Shown: positions 37,693 through 64,000, numbered from the stretch's first letter. The stretch is DNA of 64,000 bases from an uncultured Chloroflexia bacterium (GCA_963746855.1 CAVVDC010000002.1:7588-71587); one strand, 5' to 3'. Numbers and translations: made by a program. The notes: generated by a model from the letters alone, not told the origin.

Positions 37693-37703
37693 CTCGCGGC
37701 GGG

Positions 37704-44736: not shown

Positions 44737-44901
44737 CGCACCTCCTGCCGCCGTCCGGCTCGCGCGCCCACAGGACCATCGGGGGATGCGAGGGGCCCGC
44801 CGACCTCCGCCATGATGGACTGCGACGGTTGCACGAATGCACCGCGTTCGGCACGCTGTGTGTTGCCCGCGCCCCCGAGGCGTCGGCGGAGGACTGATCG
44901 G

Positions 44902-45081: not shown

Positions 45082-45158
45082 GCCACGGTCACGCGGTGAG
45101 TCGGCCGCTGTGACCGCATCGACAGCGTCGGCGCCGGAGACCAGAGCGAACACGCCCG

Positions 45159-48208: not shown

Positions 48209-48218
48209 ACTTCCGGCG

Positions 48219-49019: not shown

Positions 49020-50101
49020 CCGCCGCCTTCGACCCGCCTCGGTTGGCCCGAGCGGCGCTGCCGATCGTCGCCATCCTGTGCTTCGCGGCGGTGATCGGTG
49101 CGACGGTCGCCGTCGCCGGTGACACGCTCGGGTTCGATTTCCTCGCCTACCACCAAGCAGCGACCCGACTGCTGGCAGGGGCCCGGGTCTACGACCTCGG
49201 GTTTGAGGCGAGCGGCGCCTTCGGGCTCTTCTACTACCCACCGACGTTCGTGCCGCTCGTCCTGCCGTTCGGGTTGCTGTCGGCCACGACCGCGGTCTGG
49301 GTCTGGACCGGCCTGCTGGTCGCGGCGTTCCTCGTCGGTGTCGCGATCCTGCCGGTCTCGGCGACGGTGCGCTGGTGGACGGTCCTCCTGGCAGGCCTGT
49401 CGTGGCCGTTCGCCTACGCGGTCAAGCTCGGCCAGGTCGGACCGATCCTGTTCCTCTGCTTCGCCGTCGGGTGGCGCTGGCTGGACGATCCGGTCCGCCT
49501 CGGCTTGAGTGGTGCCCTCGGCGCGGCGATCAAGCTCCAGCCTGGGCTCATCCTCGTGTGGGCGCTGCTGACTGGGCGATACCGAGCCGTCATCGTCGGC
49601 GCCATCGGGCTGCTCCTCCTCGCAGTCGCCGCGACCCTGACCGCCGGCATCGGGTCATGGGCCGACTTCGTCACGCTCATCCGCCAGGTCAGCGACCCGA
49701 TCACGACCGCGCACAACTTCACGCCCGGCGCGATCGTGTATCAGCTGGGCCTGAGCTCGGACGTCGCGGGCCTGGTCCAGCTGGCCAGCACGGTCGCGGT
49801 ACTGATCGCCGTCGTGGTCGCGGCCCGGTTCGCGACCGCCGAGGCGTCCTACCTCGTCGCGGTCGTCGCCAGTCAGCTGCTCTCGCCGATCCTCTGGGAC
49901 CATTACGCGATGCTGCTGCTGCTGCCCGTCGCGTACCTGCTCGCGGCCGGGCGCTGGTGGGCGCTCGCCATCCCCCTCGTGACCGCGTTCCCATTGGTCG
50001 GCATCACGCCGCCGGTCGTCTACCCGATCGTGTTCTGGGTCGCGCTCGTCGCGACCGCCATGGTGGGTGTCCGATCGCGGGCCAACGGCGTCGCCGCGTG
50101 A
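49016..50101 (+). CDS. GT87/DUF2029-family membrane glycosyltransferase
   Basis: GTG 49016 overlaps the GT2 stop (GTGA). The motif reads FDFLAYHQAATRLLAGARVYD...FYYPPTFVPLVLPF. Confidence 0.7.
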   Translation: MTAAFDPPRLARAALPIVAILCFAAVIGATVAVAGDTLGFDFLAYHQAATRLLAGARVYDLGFEASGAFGLFYYPPTFVPLVLPFGLLSATTAVWVWTGLLVAAFLVGVAILPVSATVRWWTVLLAGLSWPFAYAVKLGQVGPILFLCFAVGWRWLDDPVRLGLSGALGAAIKLQPGLILVWALLTGRYRAVIVGAIGLLLLAVAATLTAGIGSWADFVTLIRQVSDPITTAHNFTPGAIVYQLGLSSDVAGLVQLASTVAVLIAVVVAARFATAEASYLVAVVASQLLSPILWDHYAMLLLLPVAYLLAAGRWWALAIPLVTAFPLVGITPPVVYPIVFWVALVATAMVGVRSRANGVAA

Positions 50102-51321
50102 CCGAGCGCGGCGATCGCGCGATCCTGGTCGGCGTCGGGCTCGTCGCCGGGTCGGCGCTCGTCTACTTGCTCGCGAACCACCTGTTCGGGGCCGGTCGGC
50201 CGGACTTCTTCTACCTCGCCGACGCGTTCCTCCACGGCCGGACCTGGCTGGCCTTCCAGCCCGGTCCGTACGACGTCATCATCGTCGGCACCCACTTCTA
50301 CGTGCCGTTCGCCCCGTTCCCGGCCGTCGCGCTCATGCCGCTCGTCGCACTCATCGGGCCGGATGCGGCCGCCGGCCGGGAGCCGGTCGTCAACGCGTTC
50401 CTCGCGGCGAGCACCGTCGGGCTGTGCTGGTGGTTCCTCGGCCGGGTCAAGGTCGCGCGCCTCAGCGACCGCGTCTGGCTGACGATCCTGTTCGGGTTCT
50501 CGACCCAGATCCTCTGGGTGACCACCCGCGGCGGCGTCTGGCACACCGGGCACCTGATCGCCACGATCCTGACCTTCGCCTGCCTCATCGAGCTGTGGGG
50601 CCGCCAACGCGCCTGGCTCATCGGCCTGCTGGCGGGAGCGGCGTTCCTGACCCGCGCGCCGCTCGCGTTCGCGATCCCGTTCTACGCGCTGATGCTCGAC
50701 CCGCGGCCGGCCCTCGCCGCCGCGACCGTTCCGGGCGGCTACATCGAGCGGGCGAAGGGGTTCCCGTGGCGCTCATGGGTCTGGCTCGGGATCGGCGCCC
50801 TCCCGGCGCTCATCGCCTTCTTCGCCTACAACCAGATCCGGTTCGGGACGCCGCTCGAATCCGGCTACGCCCTGGCGACGCTCCCGCCGTTCCTCGAGTA
50901 CCTGCGCGACCAGGGGCTGTTCTCGGTCAGCCACATCACCATGAACCTTGACTACCTGTTCCTCCACCTGCCGCGACCGATCCCGGACTTCCCCTTCTTC
51001 ATGCCCGACGGCATGGGCATGTCGATCTTCCTGACCAGCCCGGGCCTGTTCTTCGCGGTGCGAGCGGACTGGCGAGAGCGACGCGCCTGGTTGCTCTTCG
51101 GGGCGACGATCGCGGTCCTGATCCCGACGCTGCTCTACTACGGAGGAGGCTGGCTCCAGTACGGGTACCGCTACTTCCTCGACTCGGTCCCGTTCGTCAT
51201 CGCCTTGTGCGGCCTGGCCGCCGCGTACCGAGGCTCGATCGGCACCGGCTGGCGCGTCCTGATCGTGTTCGGGGTCGTGGTCAACGCGATCGGCGTCTAC
51301 TGGGCGTACAACCTGCACTGA
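50098..51321 (+). CDS. GT-C-fold membrane glycosyltransferase (ArnT/PMT_2-like)
   Basis: GTG 50098 overlaps the upstream stop (GTGA). Polytopic, with the loop motif FFYLADAFLHGRTWL...YVPFAPFPA. Confidence 0.55.
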   Translation: MTERGDRAILVGVGLVAGSALVYLLANHLFGAGRPDFFYLADAFLHGRTWLAFQPGPYDVIIVGTHFYVPFAPFPAVALMPLVALIGPDAAAGREPVVNAFLAASTVGLCWWFLGRVKVARLSDRVWLTILFGFSTQILWVTTRGGVWHTGHLIATILTFACLIELWGRQRAWLIGLLAGAAFLTRAPLAFAIPFYALMLDPRPALAAATVPGGYIERAKGFPWRSWVWLGIGALPALIAFFAYNQIRFGTPLESGYALATLPPFLEYLRDQGLFSVSHITMNLDYLFLHLPRPIPDFPFFMPDGMGMSIFLTSPGLFFAVRADWRERRAWLLFGATIAVLIPTLLYYGGGWLQYGYRYFLDSVPFVIALCGLAAAYRGSIGTGWRVLIVFGVVVNAIGVYWAYNLH

Positions 51322-51356
51322 CATCTCACCCGCGCAGGTCGGCGCACCATCGCCGA

Positions 51357-52214
51357 TCAGGCGCCCTGCGACGACGGCCGGACATCCGGAGCGACCGGCG
51401 CGGCCGACACCAGGTTGACGGACCCGGGTCCGACCAGCCTCGGCAGCGCGGCGAGGAGCCCGAACGTCGAGAAGCTGATGTCCGGCTGTGCCAGGAGCAT
51501 CGCGATCGGGACCGTCCAACGTCGGTCCGTCCGGGCGCCGATGACGACGACGACGAGCGCGGCAAGTCCCCGGATCGGGAGCCCGGGCAGCGGGATGAGG
51601 AGGTTGGTCACGCCGGTTCCCGTGAGGTCCTGGCGTCGGATGAGGTCGAACCAGGTCGCCCACGCGTCGGGCGCGAGCGCGAACGAGATGGCGGCGATCG
51701 CGACGGTCGTGCCGATCGCGATGGCCAGCGACCGCCACTCGGCCCGGACCGCGAACCAGGCGATGCCGACGCCCGGCGTGAGCTTCGTCAGCAGCGGCAG
51801 CGCCCAGAGTGACGGGTACCGGAAGCCGAGGACCGCGACCAGGGCCAGCGCCCAGTACAGGTTGTCCGACGCCCAGACGACCGCGGCGATCAGGAACGGC
51901 AGGCGGAGGCGCCACGGGAGGTCGTTGAGCAGCCACGCGTACGCGGCGATCACCGCGGCGATCCACAGCGCCCGGAAGACCGGCCATTCGAGCTGGGTCA
52001 AGGGCCACAGCAGCTGCGCGAACGCCGGCGGGTAGCTGTAGCCCCGACTCCAGAGCGTGTAGTCGGGGTTGTAGAGCGGGGAGTGCCCGGTCAGCCAGTA
52101 CGCATTGGCATCGACGAGTCGGTCGAGCGTGTTCGTCGCGATCGCCGCCGCGATGCCGAAGATGGCCAGGAACCAGGCCAGGGCAAAGAGCGCCACCGGG
52201 CGCCATCGACTCAC
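51357..52214 (-). CDS. short GT87/DUF2029-like membrane protein
   Basis: 285 aa. The motifs DANAYWL...LYNP...YSYPPAFAQLLWPL and LTKLTPGVGIAWFAVRAEW mark it as a paralog of 39568..40386. Confidence 0.6.
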   Translation of the reverse strand: MSRWRPVALFALAWFLAIFGIAAAIATNTLDRLVDANAYWLTGHSPLYNPDYTLWSRGYSYPPAFAQLLWPLTQLEWPVFRALWIAAVIAAYAWLLNDLPWRLRLPFLIAAVVWASDNLYWALALVAVLGFRYPSLWALPLLTKLTPGVGIAWFAVRAEWRSLAIAIGTTVAIAAISFALAPDAWATWFDLIRRQDLTGTGVTNLLIPLPGLPIRGLAALVVVVIGARTDRRWTVPIAMLLAQPDISFSTFGLLAALPRLVGPGSVNLVSAAPVAPDVRPSSQGA

Positions 52215-52287
52215 GTCCGCCAGTATCGACGTTTCGGCTCGCGCCGGTCGCCGGGCGCTCGCGGCGCTCGCATGCGAGACTCAGGAC

Positions 52288-54555
52288 GTGGTGCGCAGCC
52301 TGGTCGTCCTCGGCCTCTTCGTCCTGTCCGGGGCCGCCGGGCTGATCTACGAGATCGTCTGGTCCCGCCAGCTGGTCCTCGTATTCGGGAACACGACCCA
52401 GGCGGTCTCCGCCATCCTGACCGGCTTCTTCGGCGGCATGGCGATCGGGGCGGCCGTCGGCGGCCGGATCGCCGACCGGGTCCGCTCGCCCCTGCGGATG
52501 TACGGGATCCTGGAGCTCGTCCTGGTCGGGGTCGTGCTCGTGACGCCGATCTCGTTCCGGCTCATCCACGAGGCCTACCGGGGCATCTACCCCAGCCTCG
52601 AGGGCGCCCCGGGGTTGCTCGCCCTCGTTCGCCTGGTCCTCGCGGTCGCGGCGCTCGCGCCGGCGACCATCCTCATGGGCGCCACGTTCCCGAGTCTCAC
52701 CCGATACCTCGCCCGGTCGAGCGCCCTCAGCCGCGCCTTCGGGCGCCTCTATGCGGCCAACACGTTCGGGGCCATCGTCGGGACCCTCGCGGCCGGGCTC
52801 GTCCTCATCGAGATCCTCGGCCTCGGCGGCGCGCTGACCGTCGGCGCGGTCTGCTCGGCCATCGCCGGGCTCGCTGCGCTCGGGCTCTCCAGGGGCGACG
52901 TCGACGAGCCAGGCACCGCCGCTCCGGACCCGCCCCGGGCCGCGCGTGCGGATCCGATCCGCGGCCCGGCGATCGCGGCATCGCGGGTCAGGCTCGCCCT
53001 CGTCATCGCGTTCGTGTCCGGCTTGACGTCGCTCGGGTACCAGGTGACCTGGACGCGCCTGCTCGCATCGGGCACGGGCAACACGACATACGTGTTCACG
53101 GTCATCCTCGCCATCTTCCTGAGCGGCATCGCGATCGGGGCGATCCTCTTCAACCTCCTTCGGTCGCGACTCGGCGATCCGCTGCGCCTGCTGGCCATCT
53201 CGCAGGTCCTGGTCGCGGGGCTCGCGCTGATCGGCCTGACCGGAGTCCTCGGCAAACCCGAGGAGCTCCATCCGGGACAGCCCTTCGAGACGCTCGCCGC
53301 GCTGTTCGGCAGCGCGATCCTCGTCGTCCTGCCCGTCACGATCGTCCTGGGCATCGCGTTCCCGACGGCGTCGAGCCTGTTGCGCGACGAGGCCTCCGAG
53401 GCCGGGTCGGAATCCGGGTCGCTGCTGGCGTCCAACACGACCGGGGCGATCCTCGGCAGCCTGCTCGTGCCGTTCATCCTGATGCCGACCATCGGGTCGC
53501 CGTGGGTCATCGTGCTGCTCGCGGTCGTGAACACGTTGCTCGGGATCGGCCTGGCCCTGATCGAGCGCCCGCGACGCATCGAGACGCTGGTCGTCGGGGC
53601 GGGCGTGCTCGCGGTCGTCGTCGTGTTCCTCGTGCGGCCGGGCGTCGTCGCCCAACCGAACGAGGCGTTCATCCACGCGGCCGGCGGCCAGGTCTTCGCC
53701 TCGACCGAAGACGAGATCGCCTCGGTCCAGGCCGGCCAGATCAGCTCGACCCCGGAGCTCTGGGTCGCGGGCACCTCGATGACGCTCCTGACCGTCGACG
53801 CCAAGCTGATGCCGATCCTGCCGCTCATCGCCCGCCCCGACTCGACGCGCGCCCTCGTCGTCGCGTTCGGCATGGGCACGGCGTTTCGCTCGGCGCTCAT
53901 CGCGGGGCTCCGGACGGACGCGGTCGAGCTCGTCCCGTCGGTCCCCGACATGTTCGGCTTCTACTACCCGGACGCGCAGGCGGTCCTGGCGGACCCGGAT
54001 GGGCGGGTGATCATCGCCGACGGCCGCAACCACCTCGAGCTCACGACCGAGCGGTTCGACATCATCCTCACCGACCCGCCGCCACCGATCGAGAGCTCCG
54101 GTGCGTCGGTCATCTCGTCCCTCGAGTACTACGAGGCGGGCCGCGATCACCTGACCGAGGACGGCGTGATGATGCAGTGGGTTCCGTACGGAGCCCCGGA
54201 ATCCGAATTCCGCGAGCACATCCGGACGTTCGCCTCGGTCTATCCGAATGTCGCCGTCATCAAGGGCGCCGGCGGCTACGGCGCCTACATGCTCGGCTCG
54301 GCGGCGCCGCTCAGCTTCGAACCCGACGCGATCCGCGCGATCCTCGGGCGACCCGGCGTCCTCGAGGACATCTCGTCCGCCTACGACTCACCGGCGAAGA
54401 CCGTCGATGCGTGGGTCGACGTCATCGCGCGACAACAGTGGCTGTCGGGCGTGGCGCTCGCGACGTACGCCGGGACCGGCCCGTTGATCACCGATGACCG
54501 CCCACGACCCGAGTATTTCCTCCTGCGCCGATGGTCGAGCGGGGACACACGGTGA
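52288..54555 (+). CDS. fused MFS-like membrane domain / spermidine-synthase-like protein
   Basis: The N-terminus (GAAGLIYEIVWSRQLVLVFGNTTQAVSAILTGFFGGMAIGA) plus about 12 TM helices is the hallmark of this fusion family. The C-terminus has the Rossmann motif FDIILTDPPPP. A GTG 52288 start is proposed because the ORF-track start at 52105 overlaps the divergent gene. Confidence 0.78.
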   Translation: MVRSLVVLGLFVLSGAAGLIYEIVWSRQLVLVFGNTTQAVSAILTGFFGGMAIGAAVGGRIADRVRSPLRMYGILELVLVGVVLVTPISFRLIHEAYRGIYPSLEGAPGLLALVRLVLAVAALAPATILMGATFPSLTRYLARSSALSRAFGRLYAANTFGAIVGTLAAGLVLIEILGLGGALTVGAVCSAIAGLAALGLSRGDVDEPGTAAPDPPRAARADPIRGPAIAASRVRLALVIAFVSGLTSLGYQVTWTRLLASGTGNTTYVFTVILAIFLSGIAIGAILFNLLRSRLGDPLRLLAISQVLVAGLALIGLTGVLGKPEELHPGQPFETLAALFGSAILVVLPVTIVLGIAFPTASSLLRDEASEAGSESGSLLASNTTGAILGSLLVPFILMPTIGSPWVIVLLAVVNTLLGIGLALIERPRRIETLVVGAGVLAVVVVFLVRPGVVAQPNEAFIHAAGGQVFASTEDEIASVQAGQISSTPELWVAGTSMTLLTVDAKLMPILPLIARPDSTRALVVAFGMGTAFRSALIAGLRTDAVELVPSVPDMFGFYYPDAQAVLADPDGRVIIADGRNHLELTTERFDIILTDPPPPIESSGASVISSLEYYEAGRDHLTEDGVMMQWVPYGAPESEFREHIRTFASVYPNVAVIKGAGGYGAYMLGSAAPLSFEPDAIRAILGRPGVLEDISSAYDSPAKTVDAWVDVIARQQWLSGVALATYAGTGPLITDDRPRPEYFLLRRWSSGDTR

Positions 54556-54619: not shown

Positions 54620-55825
54620 ATGACCACCCAGACCCTCGACCGGGAGCCCGCCTGTCCGGGGCCGGCGTTCGACGTCGGCGACCCAGACGCGACCCCGATC
54701 GCGACGGCGCTGCGGATCGAACCGCGCGCCTTCGACGCGATCCCGCGCGAGACGTGGGACGGCCTGGTGGGCCGCAACCCGTGGGCGACCCCGTTCTCCG
54801 AGTGGGCCTTCCATCGGGCCTGGTGGGATGCTTACGGCCCCAACGCCCACGAGCAGACGCTCGTGGCCGTGCCGGCCGACGCGCCGGCCGATGGCGGGGC
54901 GGACCCCGTCGCCATCGTCCCGCTCATGCACCGCCATGAGGTCGAGCCGAGCGACGCCGCCACCCGGACGATGATGCGCCACGGGGGTGACGCCGAGCTG
55001 ACCCCGGTCGACCCGGACGCGACGGCCATCTTCTTCGGGGCGTCGTACCACGCCGATTACGCCACCGCCCTGGTCGCGCCAGCGGATCGGCCGGCGATGT
55101 GCGCCGCCCTCGCCGAGTATCTCGCCGGTCCGGGATCGGGCGACTGGGACGTCGTCGACCTGCGCCGTCTGCGCTGCGGCGATCCGTTCGCCGAGGAGCT
55201 GGCGGGCGCGCTCGGGGCGCTCGAGATCGCGAACGGCTGGACACTCAACGTCGAGCGTGAGGACGTCTGCCCCGTCGCGACGCTGCCCGACGGCGTCGAC
55301 ATGGACGGGTTCCTTTCGACCCTGGGCAAGAAGGAACGCCACGAGATCCGGCGCAAGGCCCGCCGGGCGACGGCCGTCGGCGAGATCCGTCTCGACGACT
55401 CGGCCGATCCGCTCGCCGACCTCGGGGCGTTCATCGACCTGCACCAGAAGCGCTGGGGGGCGGCCGGGCTCTTCCCGCCGACCATCGGCGGCGACCAGAG
55501 CCGGACGATGTTCCGGCGGATGTTCGAGCTGTGGGGCACGGACGGGCCGATCCGCCTGGCGTTCCTCACCGTCGGCGGCCGACGCATCGCGGCCGGCATC
55601 CACTTCGAGACGCCCGACGGCTACCTCTACTTCAACGCCGGCGTCGATCCCGATGCGCGCGACCTGTCGCCGGGCGTCGTCATGGTCCACGCCTATGTCG
55701 AGCGTGCCCTGGCCCTTGGCAAGCGCCGCCTCGACTTCCTCCGCGGCGACGAACCCTACAAGTACGAGTGGGGCGCGGTCGACGAACCCATCCAGCGCGT
55801 GCTGGTTCGACGTAGGACCAGGTGA
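54620..55825 (+). CDS. GNAT-fold acyl/aminoacyl-transferase (FemAB/CelD/BioF2-like, Acetyltransf_6-type)
   Basis: Motifs PFSEWAFHRAWWDAYG, FIDLHQKRWG, LAFLTVGGRRIAAGIHFE, YFNAGVDPD and LDFLRGDEPYKYEWGA. Confidence 0.72.
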   Translation: MTTQTLDREPACPGPAFDVGDPDATPIATALRIEPRAFDAIPRETWDGLVGRNPWATPFSEWAFHRAWWDAYGPNAHEQTLVAVPADAPADGGADPVAIVPLMHRHEVEPSDAATRTMMRHGGDAELTPVDPDATAIFFGASYHADYATALVAPADRPAMCAALAEYLAGPGSGDWDVVDLRRLRCGDPFAEELAGALGALEIANGWTLNVEREDVCPVATLPDGVDMDGFLSTLGKKERHEIRRKARRATAVGEIRLDDSADPLADLGAFIDLHQKRWGAAGLFPPTIGGDQSRTMFRRMFELWGTDGPIRLAFLTVGGRRIAAGIHFETPDGYLYFNAGVDPDARDLSPGVVMVHAYVERALALGKRRLDFLRGDEPYKYEWGAVDEPIQRVLVRRRTR

Positions 55826-55826
55826 G

Positions 55827-57029
55827 ATGACCGCCCCACGCCCATCGGACCCCTGTTTCGAGCCGGTCCAGCGGCCGGTCCTGACCGGGGACCGGATCCG
55901 TGTCGTCGAGGTGATCTCGACCGGCACGAACGGCGGTGCCCAGGAGCATCTCCAGTCGCTGGTCTCGCGGATCGACACGAGCCGCTATGACGTCTCGGTC
56001 GTGGCGATGTCGACCGGCAGCGCCGTGCGCAAGCTCCAGCGCACGAGCATCCCGGTCCTCGTCATCGACGACCCCGACGACGCCATCGCGGTCGGCGCGC
56101 TCGCCGCGCACCTGGCGGAGGTCCGGGCCGACGTCGTCCACGCCCATATGTACCGCGCCGAGACGGTCGCGACCCGTGCGGTCCTGGCCCTCGCCGAGAT
56201 CGGCCACCGCCGCCCCTACCTCGTCGCGACCGTTCATTCCAGCCGGGTCCGCCCCACCGAGGACCAGGCGTTCCTGCGCGAGCTGACGCCGCACATGGAC
56301 CACCTCATCGCCGTGTCACGTGCGATCCAGCACAAGCTGGTCGACGAGGAACGCACGACCGTCCCGGTCAGCCTCATCTACAACGGCGTGGACCTCGAGC
56401 GCTACGACCACCAGGAACCGTGCTGCACGCTGCCCGAGGAGTACGGCATGGAGCCCGGCTCGCAGATCGTCGGCGTCGTGGCCCGCCTCGAGCCCGAGAA
56501 GGGGCACCCCACGTTGCTCGAGGCCTGGCCGGCCGTCCTGCGGGTGGTGCCGGACGCGTATCTGCTCATCGTCGGGGAGGGGAGTCGCCGCGACGCCCTC
56601 GAGGCCCAGGCGCGCGAACTGCAGATCGCCCACCGGGTGGTGTTCACCGGGCGGCGCGATGACGTGCCGGCCGTGACCGCGGCGCTGGACGTCGCGGTCC
56701 TGCCGTCGTATCGCGAAGCGCAGGGGCTGTCCGTCCTCGAGGCCATGGCCCTGTCGCGTCCCGTGGTGGCCTCGAACGTCGGCGGGATCCCCGAGATGAT
56801 CAAGGACGGCGTCACGGGCCTGCTCGTCCCGCCGCGCGACGCGGAGGCCCTCGCGGCGGGGATCACCCGCCTCCTGCGGGATCACCCGTACGCCGACACG
56901 CTCGGGCGCGCGGGGCACGACCTCGTGCACGACCGGTTCTGCATCGAGTTGATGGTTCGCGCCGTCGAATCGATCTACGACGAGGGCGCCGGCACGGTCC
57001 GCCTGTCCGAGGTCGCGGCGGCCGGCTAG
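55827..57029 (+). CDS. GT4-family (GT-B fold) glycosyltransferase
   Basis: Motifs [22 protein letters not shown] and [44 protein letters not shown] (E-x7-E region). ATG 55827 lies 1 nt after the upstream stop. Confidence 0.9.
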
Positions 57030-57066
57030 GACCATCGGGCTGGTGCGGCCGCGCACCGCGGTTCGC

Positions 57067-57072
57067 TAGCAT
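57067..57072 (+). promoter_or_regulatory. candidate -10 (TAGCAT), 6 nt before the GTG start (leaderless candidate)
   Basis: TAGCAT at 57067-57072 and GTG at 57079. No Shine-Dalgarno sequence. Confidence 0.25.
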
Positions 57073-57078
57073 CGCGCG

Positions 57079-58590
57079 GTGACCCTGACCCGATTCTGGG
57101 CGTTCCTGGCCGTCGCGCTACCGGTCCTCGCCGCGCTCATCGCGAACCTGAGCTCGGTCGACCTCACGTACCACCTGCGTGCGGGCGACGAGATCCTCGC
57201 GACCGGTGCGCTCCCGGGCACGGACACGTGGACCTACACCGCTGCCGGCGCGGCGTGGGTCGACCAGCAATGGGGCGCCCAGGTCGTGCTCTCCGGCGTC
57301 TACCGGCTGGCCGGCTGGACCGGCCTCGTCATCCTGCGCGCGCTCCTCGTCGGGGTCATCTTCGGGTGCGTCTTCGAGATCGGGCGACGCCGTGGCCTCG
57401 GCACCCGCCGGGCTGCCGGGCTGACGTTCGCGGCATTCGTGGTCGCCGCCGTGGCGCTCGCCCTGCGCCCGCAGCTGTTCGGCATGGCCCTGTTCTCGAT
57501 CATCGTCCTGTTCGTCGTGGATCGTCGGACCCACCCGGACCGACTGTGGGTCATCCCGGTCCTCGTCGCGGTCTGGGCGAACCTGCATGGCAGCTTCTTC
57601 CTCGGCCCGCTCGTCCTCGGTCTGGCCTGGCTCGAGGACGTGCACGACCGGGTCCCCGGCGCGCGCCGGGTCCTGCTGATCGCCATCGTGAGCGCCGCGG
57701 CCGCCTGTCTGACGCCGTTCGGGCCGATGGTCTGGGTGTACGCCGTCGGTCTCTCGACCAACCCCGAGGTGACCGGCCGGATCAGCGAATGGCAGCCAAC
57801 ATCACTTCGCAGCGTCCCGGGCCTCCTCTTCTTCGCGTCGGTCGCCGCGGTCGTGGTCCTCATCGCCCGGCGCGGGGCCCGCACCAGCTGGCCGACCCTC
57901 GCCTGGCTCGCGGCGTTCGCGGCGATCGGCGCGTATGCCATCCGCGGCGTGGCCTGGTGGCCGCTCGGCGCCGTCGCGGCGATCGCCGGCGTGCTCGTGA
58001 CCGAGCCGGAACGAGACACAGGCGAGGAACGCCCGGACCCGGTCCTCATCCGTCGCATGAACGTCGTCCTTGCCGGCGCGATGGTGGTCGCGGGCATCGC
58101 GCTCCTGCCCGTGTGGCGGCCGCTTGACGAGGGGTTGCAGGCCCCGGCGGGGGTCGTCGGCAACGCGCCGCCAGGCATCACGGCGGCGCTGCGTGAGGTC
58201 GAACGCCCCGGCGATCGGCTCTTCAACCCGCAGCCCTGGGGATCCTGGTTCGAGTTCACGTTCCGGCACCTGCCGGTCGCCATCAATTCGCGGATCGAGG
58301 TGTTCCCCGTCGACGTCTGGGACCAGTACGAGCGCGTCGTGGCGGGCGTGGACGGGTGGCAGGACCAGCTCGACGAGTGGGGCGTGACGGTCGTCGTCGC
58401 GGCCGGCGACGGCCAGGACGCCTTCTCGGCCCGCCTCGAGGAGGCCGGCTGGCGCGAGGCATACCGGGACGCCGACGGCGCCGTCCTGGTTCGCCGCGAC
58501 CGACCGATCCTCGCGACGATCGACCATGTCGTCAGTACCGGGCACCGCCCGACCTTCGGGTCGCGGTGCGTGCTCGCACCCGGCTGCTAG
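57079..58590 (+). CDS. uncharacterised polytopic membrane protein with a C-terminal soluble domain (possible GT-C-like enzyme)
   Basis: 503 aa with about 10 TM helices. An early loop reads LTYHLRAGDEIL...DTWTYTAAGAAWVDQQWGAQV. I could not assign a family with confidence. Confidence 0.5.
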   Translation: MTLTRFWAFLAVALPVLAALIANLSSVDLTYHLRAGDEILATGALPGTDTWTYTAAGAAWVDQQWGAQVVLSGVYRLAGWTGLVILRALLVGVIFGCVFEIGRRRGLGTRRAAGLTFAAFVVAAVALALRPQLFGMALFSIIVLFVVDRRTHPDRLWVIPVLVAVWANLHGSFFLGPLVLGLAWLEDVHDRVPGARRVLLIAIVSAAAACLTPFGPMVWVYAVGLSTNPEVTGRISEWQPTSLRSVPGLLFFASVAAVVVLIARRGARTSWPTLAWLAAFAAIGAYAIRGVAWWPLGAVAAIAGVLVTEPERDTGEERPDPVLIRRMNVVLAGAMVVAGIALLPVWRPLDEGLQAPAGVVGNAPPGITAALREVERPGDRLFNPQPWGSWFEFTFRHLPVAINSRIEVFPVDVWDQYERVVAGVDGWQDQLDEWGVTVVVAAGDGQDAFSARLEEAGWREAYRDADGAVLVRRDRPILATIDHVVSTGHRPTFGSRCVLAPGC

Positions 58591-58593
58591 AGT
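58585..58593 (+). promoter_or_regulatory. candidate extended -10 (TGcTAGAGT), 7 nt before the ATG (leaderless candidate)
   Basis: TGCTAGAGT at 58585-58593 overlaps the upstream TAG stop. The ATG is at 58601. Confidence 0.3.
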
Positions 58594-58600
58594 CGGACGC

Positions 58601-59806
58601 ATGAGGGAAACGCCCGCCGATCTCGATGTCGTCGTCCTGGGCGGCGGGGGCCACGTCGGGCTGCCGCTCAGCCTGGCGTTCGCGCAGGCGGGCCTCACCG
58701 TCGGGATCTACGACACCAACCAGGACACGCTCGACCGCATCGCCGCGGGCGAGATGCCGTTCATGGAGGCGGGTGCCGACGAGCTGCTCCGCACCCTGCT
58801 CCCCACCGGACGGCTGGCGTTCGGCGCGGACGGCTCGATGATCGGCCGGACCGACCAGCTGGTCGTCGTCATCGGGACGCCGGTGGACGAATTCCTGGGG
58901 CCGTCGATGACGGTCTTCGAGCGGGCCGTCGACCAGATCGCGCCACATCTGCGTGACGGCGCCCTGGTCGTCCTGCGCAGCACCGTCTACCCGGGCACGA
59001 CCGGCTACGTGGCACAGCACTTGGCCGAGCGCGGCTGCACCGCGGACGTCGCGTTCTGCCCGGAGCGGATCGCGGAAGGCCACGCCCTCGAGGAGCTTCG
59101 CACGCTGCCCCAGATCGTCGGTGCCGACGACGAACGGGCCGCCGAACGGGCAGAAACCCTGTTTCGGCACCTCGCCGACAAGACGATCCGGACCTGCTCG
59201 AAGGAGGCCGAGCTGGCCAAGCTCTTCACGAACACCTGGCGCTACATGAAGTTCGCGGTGGCCAACCAGTTCCTGATGATCTCCGACCAGGCGGGCGTGG
59301 ACTACACGAACGTCCTGCGCGCGATCCGCGAGGACTACCCGCGCGCGGCCGACCTGCCCGGTCCCGGCTTCGCCGCCGGTCCGTGCCTGTTCAAGGACAC
59401 CATGCAGCTCGCCGCGTTCACGGCCGATCACTTCCCGCTCGGCCAGGCCGCGATGCAGGTCAACGAAGGGCTGCCGGCCTACATCGTCTCGGCGCTCGAA
59501 CGCCGCTACGGCGGGCTCCAGGGCAAGACCGTCGGGATCCTGGGCATGGCCTTCAAGAGCGAATCGGACGACACCCGGGCGTCGCTCAGCTACAAGCTGC
59601 GCAAGCTCCTCTCGTGGGCCGGCGCACGGGTCCTGGCCACCGATCCATACGTGGATGACGACCGCCTCGTCACGCTCGAGTGCACGCTCGAGGAGAGCGA
59701 CATCCTGGTCCTCGGGGCCCCGCACAAGGCGTACCGAGGGCTCCAGATCGGCGGCAAGGACGTGGTCGACGTCTGGGGGGCCCTCGGCGGGGGGATCCAG
59801 CTCTAG
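58601..59806 (+). CDS. nucleotide-sugar dehydrogenase (UDP-glucose/GDP-mannose dehydrogenase family)
   Basis: N-terminal Rossmann motif VVVLGGGGHVGLPLSLAFA, a catalytic Cys motif (GPCLFKD) and a C-terminal UDP-binding domain (GILGMAFKSESDDTR). Confidence 0.88.
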   Translation: MRETPADLDVVVLGGGGHVGLPLSLAFAQAGLTVGIYDTNQDTLDRIAAGEMPFMEAGADELLRTLLPTGRLAFGADGSMIGRTDQLVVVIGTPVDEFLGPSMTVFERAVDQIAPHLRDGALVVLRSTVYPGTTGYVAQHLAERGCTADVAFCPERIAEGHALEELRTLPQIVGADDERAAERAETLFRHLADKTIRTCSKEAELAKLFTNTWRYMKFAVANQFLMISDQAGVDYTNVLRAIREDYPRAADLPGPGFAAGPCLFKDTMQLAAFTADHFPLGQAAMQVNEGLPAYIVSALERRYGGLQGKTVGILGMAFKSESDDTRASLSYKLRKLLSWAGARVLATDPYVDDDRLVTLECTLEESDILVLGAPHKAYRGLQIGGKDVVDVWGALGGGIQL

Positions 59807-60828
59807 TGCGGATCCTCGTCACGGGCGCCGCCGGGTTCATCAACGGGTACCTGGTCCCCGAATTGCTCGAGGCCGGCCACGAGGTCGTCGGGCTCGACGA
59901 CTTCAGCAAGTACGGGCGCCTCGCGAAGTCCTATGACGGCCATCCGCGCTACCGGTTCGTCGAGGGTGACGCGAAGGACGCCGCGCTCATGCGCGAGCTC
60001 GCCGCGGACTGCGACCAGGTCGTGGCCGCGGCCGCGATGATCGGCGGCATCAGCTACTTCCACGAGTTCGCCTACGACCTACTCGCCGAGAACGAGCGGA
60101 TCCTCGCCTCGACGTTCGATGCCGCGATCGCCGCGCACCGCGACGGGCATCTCGCCCGCATCGTCGTCGTGTCGTCGTCGATGGTCTACGAGTCGGCGAC
60201 CACCTTCCCCACGCCCGAGGGCGCCCAGCGGACCTCGCCGCCACCGATCTCGACGTACGGCTTCCAGAAGCTCGCGTCCGAGTATTTCGCGACTGGGGCG
60301 TGGGAGCAGTACCGGCTGCCGTACACGATCGTCCGCCCGTTCAACTGCGTCGGCATCGGTGAACGTCGGGCGCTTCGCGACACGGACGTCATGAGCGGCA
60401 ACGTGAAGCTCGCGCTCTCGCACGTCGTGCCCGACCTCGCGCTCAAGATCCTCAAGGGCCAGGACCCGCTCCACATCCTGGGCGACGGCCACCAGGTCCG
60501 CCATTACACCTATGGCGGCGACCTCGCCCACGGGATCCGGCTGGCGATGGAGTCGGACGCCGCGGTCAACGAGGACTTCAATCTCTCGACCGCGGCATCG
60601 ACGACGGTGCTCGACCTCGCGGCGTGCCTCTGGCGCAAGGTCCACACCGACGGACGTCCCTTCTCCTACGTCAGCGACCCACCGTTCGAGCACGACGTCC
60701 AGCGACGCGTGCCCGATGTCCGCAAGGCGTGGGACGTGCTGGGGTTCGAGGCCACGACGTCGCTCGACGCGATGCTCGACGAGGTCGTGCCCTGGATCCG
60801 CGCCGAGGTGGAGGCCGGCCGGCTGTGA
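59806..60828 (+). CDS. NAD-dependent nucleotide-sugar epimerase/dehydratase (SDR family)
   Basis: GTG 59806 overlaps the upstream TAG. Motifs are ILVTGAAGFINGYL and YGFQKLASE (YxxxK). Confidence 0.88.
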   Translation: MRILVTGAAGFINGYLVPELLEAGHEVVGLDDFSKYGRLAKSYDGHPRYRFVEGDAKDAALMRELAADCDQVVAAAAMIGGISYFHEFAYDLLAENERILASTFDAAIAAHRDGHLARIVVVSSSMVYESATTFPTPEGAQRTSPPPISTYGFQKLASEYFATGAWEQYRLPYTIVRPFNCVGIGERRALRDTDVMSGNVKLALSHVVPDLALKILKGQDPLHILGDGHQVRHYTYGGDLAHGIRLAMESDAAVNEDFNLSTAASTTVLDLAACLWRKVHTDGRPFSYVSDPPFEHDVQRRVPDVRKAWDVLGFEATTSLDAMLDEVVPWIRAEVEAGRL

Positions 60829-61577
60829 CTGACTCGCCCGCGCCCGAGCTCGCCATCGTCCTGCCCGTCTACAACGAGGGCGAGGCCGTCGAGCCCGTGC
60901 TCCGCGCGCTAGCTGCCGGCGTCCGGACACGCCACGAGCTCGTCGTCGTCTACGACTTCGACGAGGACACCACCGTACCCGTGGTCGCCCGCCTGGCGAC
61001 CGAGATCCCGGGGCTGCGCGGTCTCCGCAACGACCTCGGGCGGGGCGTCCTCAATGCGATGAAGGCGGGCATCGCCGGGACGACCGCGCCGTATGTGCTC
61101 ATCTCGATGGCCGACGGCTCGGATGAGCCGCACGTGGTCGACCCGATGGTCGAGCTGGCCCGAGGTGGCGCCGACGTCGTCGCGGCCTCGCGCTACATGC
61201 GCGGCGGTCACCAGGTCGGCGGGCCGCCCCTCAAGCGATTGATGAGCCGGACCGCCGGCCTGACGCTGCACTGGTTCGCCGGCGTCCCGACCCACGATCC
61301 GACGAACAACTTCAAGCTCTACTCACGCCGGTTCCTCGAAGCGGTGACGATCGAGAGCACGGCCGGCTTCGAACTCGCCCTCGAGCTGACCGTGAAGGCG
61401 ACGGTGGCCAGACGACGGGTCGCCGAAGTACCCACGACGTGGCGCGACCGGACCGCCGGCCAGAGCAACTTCAAGCTGCGCAAGTGGCTGCCCCACTACC
61501 TGCACTGGTACTGGGCCGCGTTCCGGGGCCGCCTGTCACGAGGGCGAACCAGCGGGAACCACGGTGTCGCCGGATAG
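60825..61577 (+). CDS. GT2 polyprenol-phosphate-sugar synthase-like glycosyltransferase (DPM1/Ppm1-like)
   Basis: GTG 60825 overlaps the upstream stop (GTGA). Motifs are LAIVLPVYNE, SMADGSDEP and NNFKLYSRRF. Confidence 0.8.
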   Translation: MTDSPAPELAIVLPVYNEGEAVEPVLRALAAGVRTRHELVVVYDFDEDTTVPVVARLATEIPGLRGLRNDLGRGVLNAMKAGIAGTTAPYVLISMADGSDEPHVVDPMVELARGGADVVAASRYMRGGHQVGGPPLKRLMSRTAGLTLHWFAGVPTHDPTNNFKLYSRRFLEAVTIESTAGFELALELTVKATVARRRVAEVPTTWRDRTAGQSNFKLRKWLPHYLHWYWAAFRGRLSRGRTSGNHGVAG

Positions 61578-62340
61578 CGGTCCCGCCGCCGTGAGCCAGG
61601 CGCCCCGGCCGCTCGATCTCAGCCGCTGGCAGCCGATCGGTCGGATCCTCGGGCTGACGATCATCGGCGTCGAGGTCCTCTGGATCACCTACGTCATGGT
61701 CCAGAGCCTCGGGAACCCCTCGTTCGGGCTCGACTACCGCTGGCACATGGAGGCGGCCCAACGGCTGCTCGACACCGGCACGCCCTACCTGCCGTTCGAG
61801 CTGGCGGGCCCGTTCGTCATCGGGGCCGGGGCGATCCTCTACCCGCCGACGGCGTTCCTCCTGTTCATCCCGTTCCTGTGGCTGCCCGCCGTCCTGTGGT
61901 GGGTCATCCCCATCGCGATCCTCGCGTACGGGCTGTGGTGGCACCGCCCGCCACTCTGGGCCTGGGTCGTCATCACCTCGATCCTCGCCTTCGACAAGTC
62001 ACTCAACGTCTACGTCTTCGGCAACCCCTCGATGTGGGTCGTCGCGGCCATCGCGGCCGGGACCATCTGGCGGTGGCCGTTCGTGTTCGTCTTCGCCAAG
62101 CCGACGTTCACGCCGATCGCCCTGCTCGGCGCTCGTCGCCGGAGCTGGTGGGTCGCCCTGGCGGCACTGGGCGTCGCGTCGCTGCTCTTCCTGCCGATCT
62201 GGATCGACTGGTTCACGGTCGTGCGCAACTCGGACGTGTCGCTGCTGTACAACCTCCCGACGCTGCCCCTGATGCTGGCCCCGCTTGTCGCGTGGGCGTG
62301 CTCGATCCGGCGGTCAGGCGGCCTGCGCTTCGGGTCCTGA
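61564..62340 (+). CDS. short GT87/DUF2029-like membrane protein
   Basis: 258 aa with a GTG start. The motif reads GLDYRWHMEAAQRLLDTGTPY...ILYPPTAFLLFIPF. It overlaps the GT2 3' end by 14 nt. Confidence 0.55.
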   Translation: MSPDSGPAAVSQAPRPLDLSRWQPIGRILGLTIIGVEVLWITYVMVQSLGNPSFGLDYRWHMEAAQRLLDTGTPYLPFELAGPFVIGAGAILYPPTAFLLFIPFLWLPAVLWWVIPIAILAYGLWWHRPPLWAWVVITSILAFDKSLNVYVFGNPSMWVVAAIAAGTIWRWPFVFVFAKPTFTPIALLGARRRSWWVALAALGVASLLFLPIWIDWFTVVRNSDVSLLYNLPTLPLMLAPLVAWACSIRRSGGLRFGS

Positions 62341-63660
62341 CACCCCACGTCGCAGGAGCCAGATGGTGGTCGCCGCGATCGCGAGCATCGCGACCGACCC
62401 GGCGATGCCCAGCCAACCATCGACCGGGAGCAACTCGGCGATCCGCGGCGTGGGGGGCACCGCCGCCAGCAGGTTGAGCGTGAACACGACGCCGAACGCG
62501 ATCCCCAGCCAGCGCACCCGGGCCTCGGGGATCAGCAGCATCAGGAAGACCAGCGCGCCATACGCGTAGCGCTCGTGCATGCTCGTCAGGAAGCAGAAGG
62601 CGATGAGGGTGGCGGCCGCCAGGCCGAGGATGAGGGTCCGCGGACGCGGGTCGCGCAGGATGGCGAGCGCGACCAGGAGCGACGGCAACCCGGTCAGCAC
62701 GTAGCCGACGTGGCGAAGGGTCAGCGGACCGAGGAACGCCACGTCGTCCGCCACGAAGCCGCCGCCCGCGAACAGTGACTGGACGAGCCACCACAGGTTC
62801 CACGCCCGCAGCGAGAGGATGTTGAAGATCTCGCCCTGGTACTCCGCGAGGTTCTTGAGGTAGTTGGCCGGGCCACCGGCCGGGATGAACGGCAGCCAGA
62901 GCGCCATGATCACAACCAGGCCGATCGCCGCCGCACGCAGGAGCCCGCGCCACCCGCCGGTCGCCCAGAACCAGGCGGCAAACGGGACGAGGAAGGGCAG
63001 CACCTGGGGCTTGGTCATGAGTGCGACCGCCAGGAGCGCGGCGGCCAGCCCGTTTCGGCCGTTCACGGCGCAGATGACCGCGGCCAGGGTGGACGCCATG
63101 TAGATCGACTCGTACTGGCCCCACCAGGCGCTGATGTCGATGACGGCCGGGTGCAGCGCGATCGCCGCCGCTCCGATGACCGCCCATCGGGGCCGGTCAC
63201 GCAACGCGTAGGCCACCAGCAGGGCGAGCCCGATGTCCGCGACCGAGGCCGGGGTCTTCATCAGCGCCCGGATCGCCGGATCGGAGGCGTCGGTGACGGT
63301 CTGGAAGGCCGGCTGGACAGCCGCCAGCAGGCCCCAGACATAGGCCATCACCGGCGGGAAGGAGAGGTTCTGGTCGTAGGCGTTGGGCAAGCCATCGACC
63401 GCGATGCCGTGGACCCACAGGACGAACTGGTCGAGGTCGCCGCGGAGGCCCTCGGTCGGCAGCAGGACGACGCGGATGACGATGCCCGCGACGAGCGCGG
63501 CGATGAGCCCGACGATGTACGACGCCGGCCAGCGGGCTCCGGGCGCTCGGCCCGTTCCTGCGGCCCCAGGCGTCACCGGATCAGACGCGGCCGGAGACCC
63601 AGTACCGTTCCGCGGATCCGTCCACAGCGCCCAGCTCGGCGATCGCGCGTCCGTAGACAC
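62314..63660 (-). CDS. GT-C-fold membrane mannosyltransferase-like protein (Gpi18/PIG-V-like or GT87-related)
   Basis: Polytopic, with the loop motif GDLDQFVLWVHG...NAYDQNLSFPPVMAYVWG. The start is ambiguous. ATG 63660 overlaps the upstream gene by 80 nt. GTG 63576 lies 4 nt after the upstream stop and is probably better. Confidence 0.6.
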   Translation of the reverse strand: MSTDARSPSWALWTDPRNGTGSPAASDPVTPGAAGTGRAPGARWPASYIVGLIAALVAGIVIRVVLLPTEGLRGDLDQFVLWVHGIAVDGLPNAYDQNLSFPPVMAYVWGLLAAVQPAFQTVTDASDPAIRALMKTPASVADIGLALLVAYALRDRPRWAVIGAAAIALHPAVIDISAWWGQYESIYMASTLAAVICAVNGRNGLAAALLAVALMTKPQVLPFLVPFAAWFWATGGWRGLLRAAAIGLVVIMALWLPFIPAGGPANYLKNLAEYQGEIFNILSLRAWNLWWLVQSLFAGGGFVADDVAFLGPLTLRHVGYVLTGLPSLLVALAILRDPRPRTLILGLAAATLIAFCFLTSMHERYAYGALVFLMLLIPEARVRWLGIAFGVVFTLNLLAAVPPTPRIAELLPVDGWLGIAGSVAMLAIAATTIWLLRRGVSGPEAQAA

Positions 63661-64000
63661 GGACGGAGTCGGCCATCGCCTTCGTGCCGTCGAAGAGGCG
63701 CTCCAGCTGGCTCTGGTAGAGGTTGATGCCCGTGATCTTGCGCTCGAGCTGATCGGTGATGTCGGCGAACGTCGGCAGGATGGAGACGTCGCCCGGGAGG
63801 TCGGCCAGGGCGCCGGGACCGAGGTCCTCGAGCCGGCGGAAGTCGTTCCACCAGGCGTACGGGAAGTCCTCGTAGAAGGTGACGATCCCGGCGTATTCGG
63901 GGCCGGGCATCACCCAACGGCGGCCCTCCTGGAGGAGCCGGATGCCGACATCGCGACAGAGCTGATGATCGACATGGCCGCCGACGCCCAGCGGGAAATA
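63581..64000 (-). CDS. PIG-L/LmbE-family N-acetylglucosaminyl deacetylase, 5'-truncated at the window edge
   Basis: The minus-strand frame is open to the window end. The translation contains YFPLGVGGHVDHQL (the PIG-L HxDH metal motif), followed by ...YEDFPYAWW...INLYQSQL. Confidence 0.65.
   Translation of the reverse strand, partial: YFPLGVGGHVDHQLCRDVGIRLLQEGRRWVMPGPEYAGIVTFYEDFPYAWWNDFRRLEDLGPGALADLPGDVSILPTFADITDQLERKITGINLYQSQLERLFDGTKAMADSVRVYGRAIAELGAVDGSAERYWVSGRV

Follow-up and report, generated by a model that had tools for sequence, protein, structure and literature searches.

Mycothiol, made in Actinomycetota by MshA, MshB, MshC and MshD, and bacillithiol, made by BshA, BshB and BshC, follow a comparable three-step logic, in which a family 4 glycosyltransferase (GT4) adds N-acetylglucosamine (GlcNAc), a PIG-L/LmbE deacetylase frees the amine and an amide is formed on the amine of the resulting glucosamine (GlcN). 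Here we studied a locus that resembles these pathways in a 64,000-nucleotide stretch of DNA (hereafter the window) from an uncultured Chloroflexia bacterium (GCA_963746855.1 CAVVDC010000002.1:7588-71587). The right end of the window, from position 54,620 to 64,000, carries the genes of a FemX-like tandem GNAT, a GT4 and a PIG-L/LmbE deacetylase (the triad), with envelope-glycan genes inserted between the last two and further upstream. We see about an even chance that the region holds two interleaved systems, a conserved module like those of mycothiol and bacillithiol and a separate, variable envelope-glycan system.

The likeness to mycothiol synthesis also includes a GT4 that is MshA-like over its full length in the other Chloroflexota, the presence of Ino1, and an MshC-like protein that replaces the GNAT in sister lineages. 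On the other hand, the ligase of the triad is a FemX-like tandem GNAT, presumably tRNA-dependent, whereas MshC is an ATP-dependent paralogue of cysteinyl-tRNA synthetase (CysRS); the GT4 and the PIG-L of the window are divergent and fall far under the MshA and MshB cut-offs; and the triad genes are clustered, while the Chloroflexota MshC-like genes that we checked are not. The msh genes of Actinomycetota are dispersed. With bacillithiol synthesis the locus shares, besides the three-step logic, BshA proteins as the best solved relatives of its GT4 and BshB1/BshB2 as the best matches of the PIG-L proteins, but all scores lie under the equivalog cut-offs and BshC was found in none of the 301 Chloroflexota genomes searched.

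The GNAT itself has the double-GNAT fold in common with the FemX/FemABX, MprF and Orf11/Sbb17-type enzymes; its family shows an invariant aromatic-Lys pair and a basic RHE-x-RRK-x-RR stretch, and for the Orf11-type enzymes the acylated group is an amino-sugar amine, as we propose for the GNAT. Unlike FemX/FemABX, it gives no FemAB Pfam match, reaches FemX in a profile search with an E of 0.16 and belongs to PF13480 (CelD/BcsL). A further comparison is with the eukaryotic/archaeal initiation of glycosylphosphatidylinositol (GPI) anchors by PIG-A and PIG-L and with the actinobacterial synthesis of phosphatidylinositol mannosides (PIM) and lipomannan by PimA, PatA, PimE/GT87 and Ppm1, where a GT4 and a PIG-L, family 2 glycosyltransferases (GT2) like dolichol-phosphate-mannose synthase (DPMS), GT87 or other GT-C proteins, EptA-like proteins and phosphatidylinositol (PI) genes all have counterparts in our genome. 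The locus differs from these systems in that it shows no PIG-A or PIG-V signature, we predict a new acyl group on its GlcN amine, in relatives the triad does not depend on GT-C, GT2 and EptA-like genes, and the PimA/PatA-like genes lie in a separate operon on another contig.

Materials and methods

The stretch (G000:C2:7588-71587) belongs to a 2.73-Mb metagenome-assembled genome (MAG) that is 63% complete and has ~70% GC. The close homologues of the window genes carry the source names Candidatus Limnocylindrales and Chloroflexota and, judging from them, the source organism is a Limnocylindrales-type Chloroflexota MAG. An actinobacterial origin, to which the gene order of rfe, the atp operon and murA and the GC content had pointed, was rejected on the strength of these names. 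Genes were called by the frame-specific GC content of third codon positions (GC3), families were assigned with Pfam and NCBIfam profiles, and the gene neighbourhoods of relatives were rebuilt by genome searches and tblastn. Gene families, folds, synteny and phyletic patterns were thus computed directly. Presence and absence were tallied in a phylum sample of 301 Chloroflexota genomes, which includes the unpublished G078, G170, G207, G242 and G301; these contribute only to the tallies of the GNAT, Ino1 and the MshC-like protein and supplied no sequence, and removing all five alters no conclusion. We refer to the window's own family as f1, to a sister family with genomes of 1.0-1.4 Mb as f2 and to a family of the same class as f3. 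The set for locus comparison consisted of 24 loci (four from f2 and 20 from other families). Equivalog cut-offs were 462.5 bits for MshA (TIGR03449) and 273.7 bits for BshA (TIGR03999), and MshC-like proteins were counted as present at E<=1e-105.

A conserved GNAT, GT4 and PIG-L triad

In four f2 genomes (1.1-1.4 Mb), the GNAT, the GT4 and a convergent PIG-L form one uninterrupted run of genes, with no glycan genes nearby. The backbone of these genomes runs from the atp operon through murA, mreB, a PHP gene and a flippase-like gene to the GNAT, and it corresponds to the 8-24 kb part of the window; measured against the f2 backbone, the Tad-pilus and glycan genes that occupy ~24-54.5 kb of the window thus count as insertions, and the upstream glycan region (36073-52214) is missing from that backbone. 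In the window, a PHP phosphoesterase gene and a flippase-like (LPG_synthase_TM) gene are located at 17664-19726, 3' of mreB; in the 1.2-Mb f2 relatives this pair stands three genes from the GNAT.

The order GNAT, GT4, PIG-L is found throughout the phylum. Among named species-representative genomes, a GT4 lies immediately 3' of the GNAT at all 27 Limnocylindrales-type loci and at 28 of the 47 others, so the clustering is not due to chance. Within the comparison set, the GT4 follows the GNAT in 17 of the 24 loci and a short canonical PIG-L comes next in nine of those, and across the phylum the triad recurs with two different PIG-L types. In the window itself, a single nucleotide separates the stop codon of the GNAT from the ATG of the GT4. 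All three proteins are devoid of transmembrane (TM) segments, and in f2 and most other Chloroflexota the triad has no GT-C, GT2 or EptA-like neighbour at all. Gene order of this kind supports the view that the GT4, the PIG-L and the FemAB-like GNAT constitute a real functional unit. The preliminary description of this DNA had joined all the genes of its right end into one GPI/PIM-like glycolipid pathway, which is at odds with the relatives, where the triad stands alone and the insert between GT4 and PIG-L varies with the lineage. It had also proposed a survey of the gene set across genomes; our survey bears out the co-occurrence for the GNAT, the GT4 and the PIG-L, which recur together, but not for the GT-C, GT2 and EptA-like genes, which vary.

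In relatives of genus g5 (for example G203:C2:23548-24387) and at the loci L091 and L093, the GNAT and the GT4 are kept and the long PIG-L is missing or leaves fragment matches only. To judge by these loci, the deacetylase is dispensable or replaced in such relatives.

The FemX-like GNAT

A FemAB/CelD-like GNAT had been expected at this locus and is indeed present, with the PF13480 match given in Table 1. Its start at ATG 54620 is fixed by the lengths of its homologues (395-405 aa), which are single-copy in 114 of the 301 Chloroflexota genomes, including closed genomes of 1.4-1.9 Mb. An AlphaFold2 (AF2) model of the protein (pLDDT 87.8) displays a double-GNAT fold whose top Foldseek matches are the FemX proteins of Weissella and S. 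aureus, FemA, Sbb17/Sba18 and the synthase domains of MprF (E ~1e-11, TM-score 0.5-0.6). All of these top matches are aminoacyl-tRNA-dependent transferases, with the acyl-CoA tandem GNATs ranking lower, and the Sbb17/Sba18 structures show these proteins bound to the amino-sugar intermediate streptothrisamine. Congruently, when the family profile was compared with the PDB sequences, FemX was the sole match, albeit a weak one; a phmmer search of the same sequences with the single GNAT sequence gave no match, the Pfam scan gave none to PF02388 (FemAB family), and there was no NCBIfam match at E<=0.001.

Two features of the family are, in our reading, similar to the catalytic Lys and the tRNA-binding helix of FemX (PMC12945691): a Y380-K381 pair close to the C-terminal end, invariant and nine residues past an Asp that aligns with FemX D288 in the sequence alignment, and the conserved basic stretch. 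Precedents for the proposed chemistry come from a Fem-like enzyme that acylates streptothrisamine in a Gly-tRNA-dependent manner (PMC12945691) and from the FemX-like HfsK of Caulobacter, for which a role in acylating the amines left by the deacetylase HfsH has been proposed (PMC5362036). The donor of the GNAT is presumably an aminoacyl-tRNA, as its modelled fold suggests. For PF13480 (CelD/BcsL type) we know of no demonstrated donor. The Limnocylindrales GNATs also carry an N-terminal extension of ~60 residues (54620-54800 in the window) with a conserved 'EPACPG' motif, which is disordered in the model and missing from the GNATs of other classes.

The GT4 and the PIG-L deacetylase

Among solved structures, those closest to the window GT4 are of BshA (2jjm, 3mbo and 5d00; 105 bits), followed by MshA and PimB'. 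Against NCBIfam, its best match over the full length was stp2, a glycosyltransferase of PEP-CTERM exopolysaccharide loci (182 bits), ahead of BshA (138 bits) and MshA (97.9 bits), with all three scores under their cut-offs; nothing closer to MshA was found in G000 or in five near-complete relatives. The proposed PIG-A-type GT4 was not borne out, as the Pfam scan at E<=0.01 listed no PIGA-family match. Two further assignments were rejected: PimA, since the GT4 in the PimA position is another gene, in an operon on contig C15 and in a separate clade, and a grouping with the MshA-like GT4s, since the tree places the window GT4 on a long separate branch.

In the other classes, the GT4 at the triad position scores 272-411 bits on TIGR03449 over its full length, far above the next family and under the cut-off. 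It aligns end to end with MshA of C. glutamicum and conserves K78, Y110, T134 and R154, which we take to be the inositol-phosphate-binding residues of MshA and whose chain positions the alignment confirmed. The same GT4 matches a sucrose-phosphate synthase equally well, and both relatives use soluble phosphorylated acceptors. The N-terminal domain of the Limnocylindrales GT4 differs from that of these MshA-like proteins. Because an MshA-like GT4 was not found in five near-complete Limnocylindrales genomes, we regard the window GT4 as its positional equivalent. Orthologues of the window GT4 at 48-53% identity also occur in the GNAT-less f3 genomes, with the same synteny with the gene for protein-L-isoaspartate O-methyltransferase (PCMT), which in the window's genome is directly upstream of the PIG-L (window-equivalent 64703-65374; L003:1291-1962, minus strand).

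The window ends within the PIG-L gene. In full, this gene spans the window-equivalent positions 63581-64654 on the minus strand (G000:C2:71168-72241), and residues 219-357, including the HxDH motif, are encoded before base 64000. Its complete 357-aa product belongs to the PIG-L/LmbE family, matching PF02585 in two stretches with 60.6 bits (cut-off 28.2), and the motifs H9-P-D11-D12 and H227-x-D229-H230 are invariant. This long PIG-L is found in 15 of 15 high-quality relatives, with an identity of 75-96% within the genus and 56% in f2, and, apart from an insert of ~100 aa, its alignment with the short PIG-Ls of the triads of other classes extends over the whole length. Its only NCBIfam match is to BshB1 (34.9 bits across 40 residues at the N-terminus). 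The short PIG-Ls match PF02585 over their full length (E ~1e-33), and their best NCBIfam matches are BshB1/BshB2 (88-109 bits), followed by Mca and MshB; on the MshB model TIGR03445 they reach ~55 bits (cut-off 224).

The stp2 match of the GT4 brings up the alternative that the target of the triad is an envelope polysaccharide or a lipid-linked repeat unit, to which GlcNAc would be added and then deacetylated and N-acylated, as with HfsH and HfsK in the holdfast of Caulobacter. The PEP-CTERM exopolysaccharide loci would be a further parallel. The CelD/BcsL-type PF13480 domain of the GNAT, the setting in a glycan island with a WecA-like gene at 1557-3053 of the window, and the precedent of HfsK (PMC5362036) all fit such a role. 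However, the triad is single-copy, housekeeping-like and kept in genomes of 1.1-1.9 Mb with no surrounding polysaccharide genes; the PIG-L/LmbE enzymes act on small glycosides, polysaccharide deacetylases being another family; and the GT4s of other classes are MshA-like. The lack of an NCBIfam match for the GNAT argues in the same direction, NCBIfam presumably including a PEP-CTERM FemAB-type model. Taken together, we consider a polysaccharide-modifying triad quite improbable.

Complementarity with MshC-like proteins

According to the preliminary description, a GT4 and a PIG-L grouping with the mycothiol or bacillithiol enzymes, with mshC/mshD or bshC nearby, would point to a thiol pathway. 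The outcome leans to the thiol type as far as the two proteins are concerned (BshA as the best solved relatives, and an MshA-like GT4 with a BshB/MshB-like PIG-L in the other classes), but neither MshC nor bshC is encoded near the triad. BshC (TIGR03998) was found in none of five genomes and nowhere in the phylum sample by a search that was positive in the controls Bacillus, Thermus and Deinococcus, and neither GCS2 nor GshB was found in the five genomes. The MshC model (TIGR03447, cut-off 485 bits) gave matches of <=293 bits, at the level of CysRS, in G000, G010, G024, G025 and G028.

Elsewhere in the phylum we identified an MshC-like paralogue of CysRS in 134 of the 301 genomes. These proteins of 400-450 aa are always additional to a CysRS and score 354-410 bits on TIGR03447 (examples are G205:C1:1920060-1921283 and G293:C1:633299-634489; loci L159-L174). 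The GNAT and the MshC-like protein are distributed in a nearly exclusive fashion: 98 genomes have the GNAT only, 118 the MshC-like protein only, 69 neither and 16 both, against ~51 expected to have both under independence (odds ratio 0.095), although these counts treat related genomes as independent, so that the Fisher p-value overstates the case. The GNAT was present in all genomes of five families in which no MshC-like protein was found (f1, 16/16; f2, 2/2; f9, 20/20; f19, 9/9; f26, 4/4), while the MshC-like protein characterizes families that lack the GNAT (f3, 15/15; f13, 18/18; f23, 20/22; f30, 7/7; f8, 5/5; f17, 6/6; f27, 5/6). The switch can also be seen within the window's class, between f1/f2 and f3, and inside the families f16 and f25. 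In f3, both the GNAT and the long PIG-L are missing, the MshC-like gene lies elsewhere in the genome and the PCMT gene is still beside the GT4. Each of the four MshC-like-positive genomes outside f3 that we checked (f13, f23, f30 and f49) contains an MshA-like GT4 of ~395-400 bits, in the score range of the GT4s that follow the GNAT elsewhere. A clustering of the MshC-like genes with MshA-like or PIG-L genes was considered and rejected, as they are adjacent in 0 of 12 loci.

The simplest reading of this pattern is that the FemX-like and the MshC-like enzymes would perform the same step, and because the distribution of the GNAT complements that of the MshC-like protein, cysteine is the most likely amino acid. 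A soluble product of another kind, an N-acyl or N-aminoacyl glucosaminide serving as an osmolyte or a signal and carrying Gly, Ala, Ser or an acyl-CoA-derived group, would explain the chemistry and the unity of the module equally, and the known Fem-like enzymes do mostly transfer Gly, Ala, Ser or Leu; moreover, some genomes have both the GNAT and the MshC-like protein, among them G241 and G250 with full triads. The near-exclusive distribution with respect to an MshC-like cysteine ligase nevertheless suggests that both act at one step and yield one class of product, and with BshC, GCS2 and GshB not found, the thiol niche is open. A non-thiol product is therefore rather unlikely in our judgement.

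In the literature searched we found no report of a low-molecular-weight thiol or of a mycothiol-type pathway in Chloroflexota, and no prior description of bacillithiol or mycothiol in Chloroflexi, of mycothiol in Dehalococcoides or of a Fem protein with glucosaminyl-inositol (GlcN-Ins). The MshC-like and MshA-like genes described here look like canonical mycothiol genes outside Actinomycetota, and they too go unmentioned in that literature.

The variable glycan genes

The features of the region are collected in Table 1. Dense envelope-glycan genes extend from 36 kb to just beyond the end of the window. Within f1, the content between the GT4 and the PIG-L ranges from nothing, through a GT-C alone, to a full cassette composed of a GT-C, the dehydrogenase, a short-chain dehydrogenase/reductase (SDR), a GT2, a small membrane protein and a second GT-C; G007 is different again. 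The gene of TMunk503 is the first of the insert and is found in 14 of the 19 Limnocylindrales-type loci with enough flank, but at no triad in f2 or other classes. The AF2 model of TMunk503 (pLDDT 92) matches STT3, DPY19, AglB, ArnT, ALG12, PglB and AftA in Foldseek. Its family has 17,537 representatives (E<=1e-3) and no Pfam or NCBIfam model, and D28, in the first extracytoplasmic loop, is invariant.

Table 1. Features at the right end of the window and in its upstream flank (window coordinates)
Feature	Coordinates	Strand	Evidence
FemX-like tandem GNAT ('GNAT6', 401 aa)	54620..55825	+	PF13480, 101 bits
GT4 retaining glycosyltransferase	55827..57029	+	PF00534/PF13692, ~145 bits
GT-C fold membrane protein ('TMunk503', 503 aa)	57079..58590	+	predicted fold; no Pfam or NCBIfam match
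NDP-sugar 6-dehydrogenase, UDP-Glc or UDP-ManNAc type	~58601..59806	+	three UDPG_MGDP_dh Pfam domains
SDR NAD-dependent epimerase/decarboxylase acting on a nucleotide sugar	~59806..60828	+	PF01370, 134 bits; start codon inferred
DPMS/ArnC-like GT2, polyprenyl-phosphate sugar synthase	~60825..61577	+	PF00535, 61 bits
258-aa membrane protein, weakly GT87-like	61564..62340	+	five TM segments; no Pfam match
GT-C, Alg6/GT87-like	62314..63660	-	PF03155, 33 bits (cut-off 25); PF09594, 22 bits
PIG-L/LmbE deacetylase, C-terminal 139 codons of 357 aa	63581..64000	-	PF02585
Fused MFS/spermidine-synthase-like membrane protein	52105..54555	+	NF037959, 101 bits, above cut-off
Upstream part of the variable glycan island	36073..52214		Pfam and paralogy; NCBIfam for the GT2

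The enzyme classes of GPI assembly, said to be gathered at the right end, are present, yet the PIG-N-like genes lie upstream (40383-48208) and the PIG-L runs past the window. The DPM1-like GT2 was confirmed: its catalytic domain is closest to DPMS, the best PDB match being the dolichol-phosphate-mannose synthase of Pyrococcus (5mlz, E 1.8e-17) and ArnC coming at E 2.3e-6, and its NCBIfam matches to AglJ, a dolichyl-phosphate hexose transferase, ArnC and PpgS are all under the cut-offs. For the GT-C called Gpi18-like, the fold and class hold but not the family, as no match to the PIG-V, PIG-M or PIG-B families was found for the GT-Cs of the window. The expected dehydrogenase/epimerase pair was also recovered. 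The dehydrogenase, with M26 of the long open reading frame (ORF) as its likely start, scores 275 bits on TIGR03026, above the cut-off, and its PDB relatives are 3vtf, 4r16 and Cap5O; those of the SDR are UDP-Glc 4-epimerases and UDP-GlcA decarboxylases.

The 258-aa protein is syntenic after the GT2 in L015-L017, hits GT87 paralogues in BLASTP (E 1e-4 and 2e-3), and could be either a short GT-C or a membrane protein that partners the GT2. It is one of three half-size (258-285 aa) GT87-like proteins, the others being encoded at 39568-40386 and 51357-52214 (minus strand), which match the GT87 profile in its N-terminal part only and may be split or partner subunits. The minus-strand GT-C has eight hydrophobic segments and an ORF that overlaps the PIG-L stop by 80 nt, its start being uncertain. 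Neither the two GT-Cs nor the 258-aa protein received an NCBIfam assignment. The upstream part of the island contains two PMT_2 GT-Cs, four GT87 proteins, four EptA-like paralogues, one DPMS-like GT2 and one unknown gene; the EptA-like paralogues are membrane-anchored members of the alkaline-phosphatase superfamily with 4-5 N-terminal TM segments and weak Sulfatase matches (21-28 bits), and a phmmer search of the PDB sequences with an EptA-like paralogue gave no match. The fused gene, like the major facilitator superfamily (MFS) and spermidine synthase, is next to the GNAT in f1 only (syntenic in L015-L018 and L075-L084) and was not found beside the triad in f2 or other classes.

Inositol-lipid genes on contig C15

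The search for PI synthase and inositol-1-phosphate synthase genes that the preliminary description had suggested uncovered an operon of the PI/PIM type at G000:C15:76430-82450 (L014:6431-12448, minus strand). It contains a CDP-alcohol transferase like phosphatidylinositol phosphate (PIP) synthase, Ino1, two PIM-acyltransferase-like genes, a PHP phosphoesterase and a GT4, and it is kept in the four relatives G010, G024, G025 and G028, including 1.2-Mb genomes. The best matches were to PIPSynth (123 bits, cut-off 170) and, twice, to the PIM acyltransferase (~123 bits, cut-off 209). Ino1 was recognized by PF01658 (126 bits at C15:80807-81133) and TIGR03450 (535 bits, cut-off 638), and is present in 280 of the 301 genomes. 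The PHP protein of the operon is a candidate PIP phosphatase; to our knowledge, this enzyme has not yet been identified.

Since inositol-lipid genes exist in the genome, the PI-anchored reading is not refuted. It would have the GT4 make GlcNAc-PI or another GlcNAc-lipid on the inner leaflet, which would be deacetylated by the PIG-L, acylated or aminoacylated by the GNAT, flipped, extended with sugars from polyprenyl phosphate by GT-C enzymes and decorated by EptA-like enzymes to give a GPI/PIM-like anchor. That all the GPI enzyme classes co-localise, that an operon with Ino1 persists even in 1.2-Mb relatives, that most f1 genomes have a GT-C after the GT4 and that the glycan genes are inserted exactly inside the triad all speak in its favor, as do the MprF synthase domains among the structural neighbours of the GNAT, the flippase-like gene three genes from it in f2, and the MshA-like GT4s of other classes, which recognise an acceptor of the inositol-phosphate type that PI also presents. 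Against this, f2 and most of the phylum have the triad without GT-C, GT2 or EptA-like neighbours, the search for a PIG-A domain was negative, TM segments are missing from all three enzymes, the part of the canonical PimA-like GT4 falls to a different gene on C15, and the GlcN amine stays free in GPI; the complementarity with MshC, a ligase of soluble substrates, and the situation in f3 are also hard to explain. An anchor of this kind is in our view unlikely, and its more elaborate form, in which Limnocylindrales and possibly other Chloroflexota would make a GPI-like anchor on PI that is aminoacylated by a split MprF-like system (the GNAT and a separate flippase-like protein), extended outside the membrane by GT-C enzymes that draw on polyprenyl-phosphate sugars and capped by EptA-like ones, is distinctly doubtful.

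Discussion

Our preferred explanation separates a mycothiol/bacillithiol-like module from an envelope-glycan system. The module would act in the cytoplasm, where the GT4 would move GlcNAc, or another N-acetylhexosamine, from a nucleotide sugar to an acceptor X, the PIG-L/LmbE metallo-deacetylase would strip the N-acetyl group, and the FemX-like GNAT would re-acylate the freed amine with an amino acid from an aminoacyl-tRNA. The FemX-like enzyme would thereby have taken the place of the non-orthologous MshC-type cysteine ligase, and the pathway would end in a soluble conjugate of the form aminoacyl-GlcN-X, most probably a low-molecular-weight thiol that bears cysteine. The MshA-like GT4 suggests that X is inositol or inositol phosphate in most Chloroflexota; we leave it unspecified for Limnocylindrales. 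The second system would be a lineage-variable cassette for extracytoplasmic glycosylation, inserted between the GT4 and the PIG-L and upstream, in which the dehydrogenase and the SDR may make a uronic or derived nucleotide sugar, the DPMS-like GT2 may load the sugar onto polyprenyl phosphate, GT-C enzymes may transfer it outside the membrane and EptA-like enzymes may add phospho-groups. We infer from sequence every substrate, the need for tRNA, which amino acid is used and that the module works independently of the glycan system.

Besides the relatedness of the genomes counted, several observations weigh against this explanation. The top NCBIfam match of the window GT4 is a glycosyltransferase of exopolysaccharide loci, its relations are unresolved on its long separate branch, and it and the PIG-L fall far under the thiol cut-offs (138 of 274 bits for BshA, 98 of 462 for MshA and 35 of 182 for BshB1). 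FemX-like folds also act on lipids, as in MprF, and possibly on polysaccharide, as in HfsK (PMC5362036). In f1, a GT-C gene in the same orientation comes after the GT4, and glycan genes lie to either side of the module, which could mean a shared membrane pathway. As for the distribution, 16 genomes hold both the GNAT and the MshC-like gene, ten GNAT-positive genomes have no Ino1, genus g5 retains the GNAT and the GT4 yet lacks the long PIG-L, and some GNAT homologues stand alone.

The locus also calls for caution in annotation, as variable glycan genes that enter a conserved housekeeping module can produce a GPI-like co-localisation. Our data suggest that much of Chloroflexota carries MshA/MshB/MshC-like genes, and that another large part of the phylum (including the abundant Limnocylindria of soil and freshwater, Dehalococcoidia and Anaerolineae) would swap the CysRS-derived ligase for a FemX-like, presumably tRNA-dependent, transferase. 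If this is true, two ligase classes with no relation to each other would form one and the same amide bond on an amino sugar, the large family of CelD/BcsL-type GNATs would gain a function, and the redox cofactor of a major uncultured lineage would become nameable and testable.

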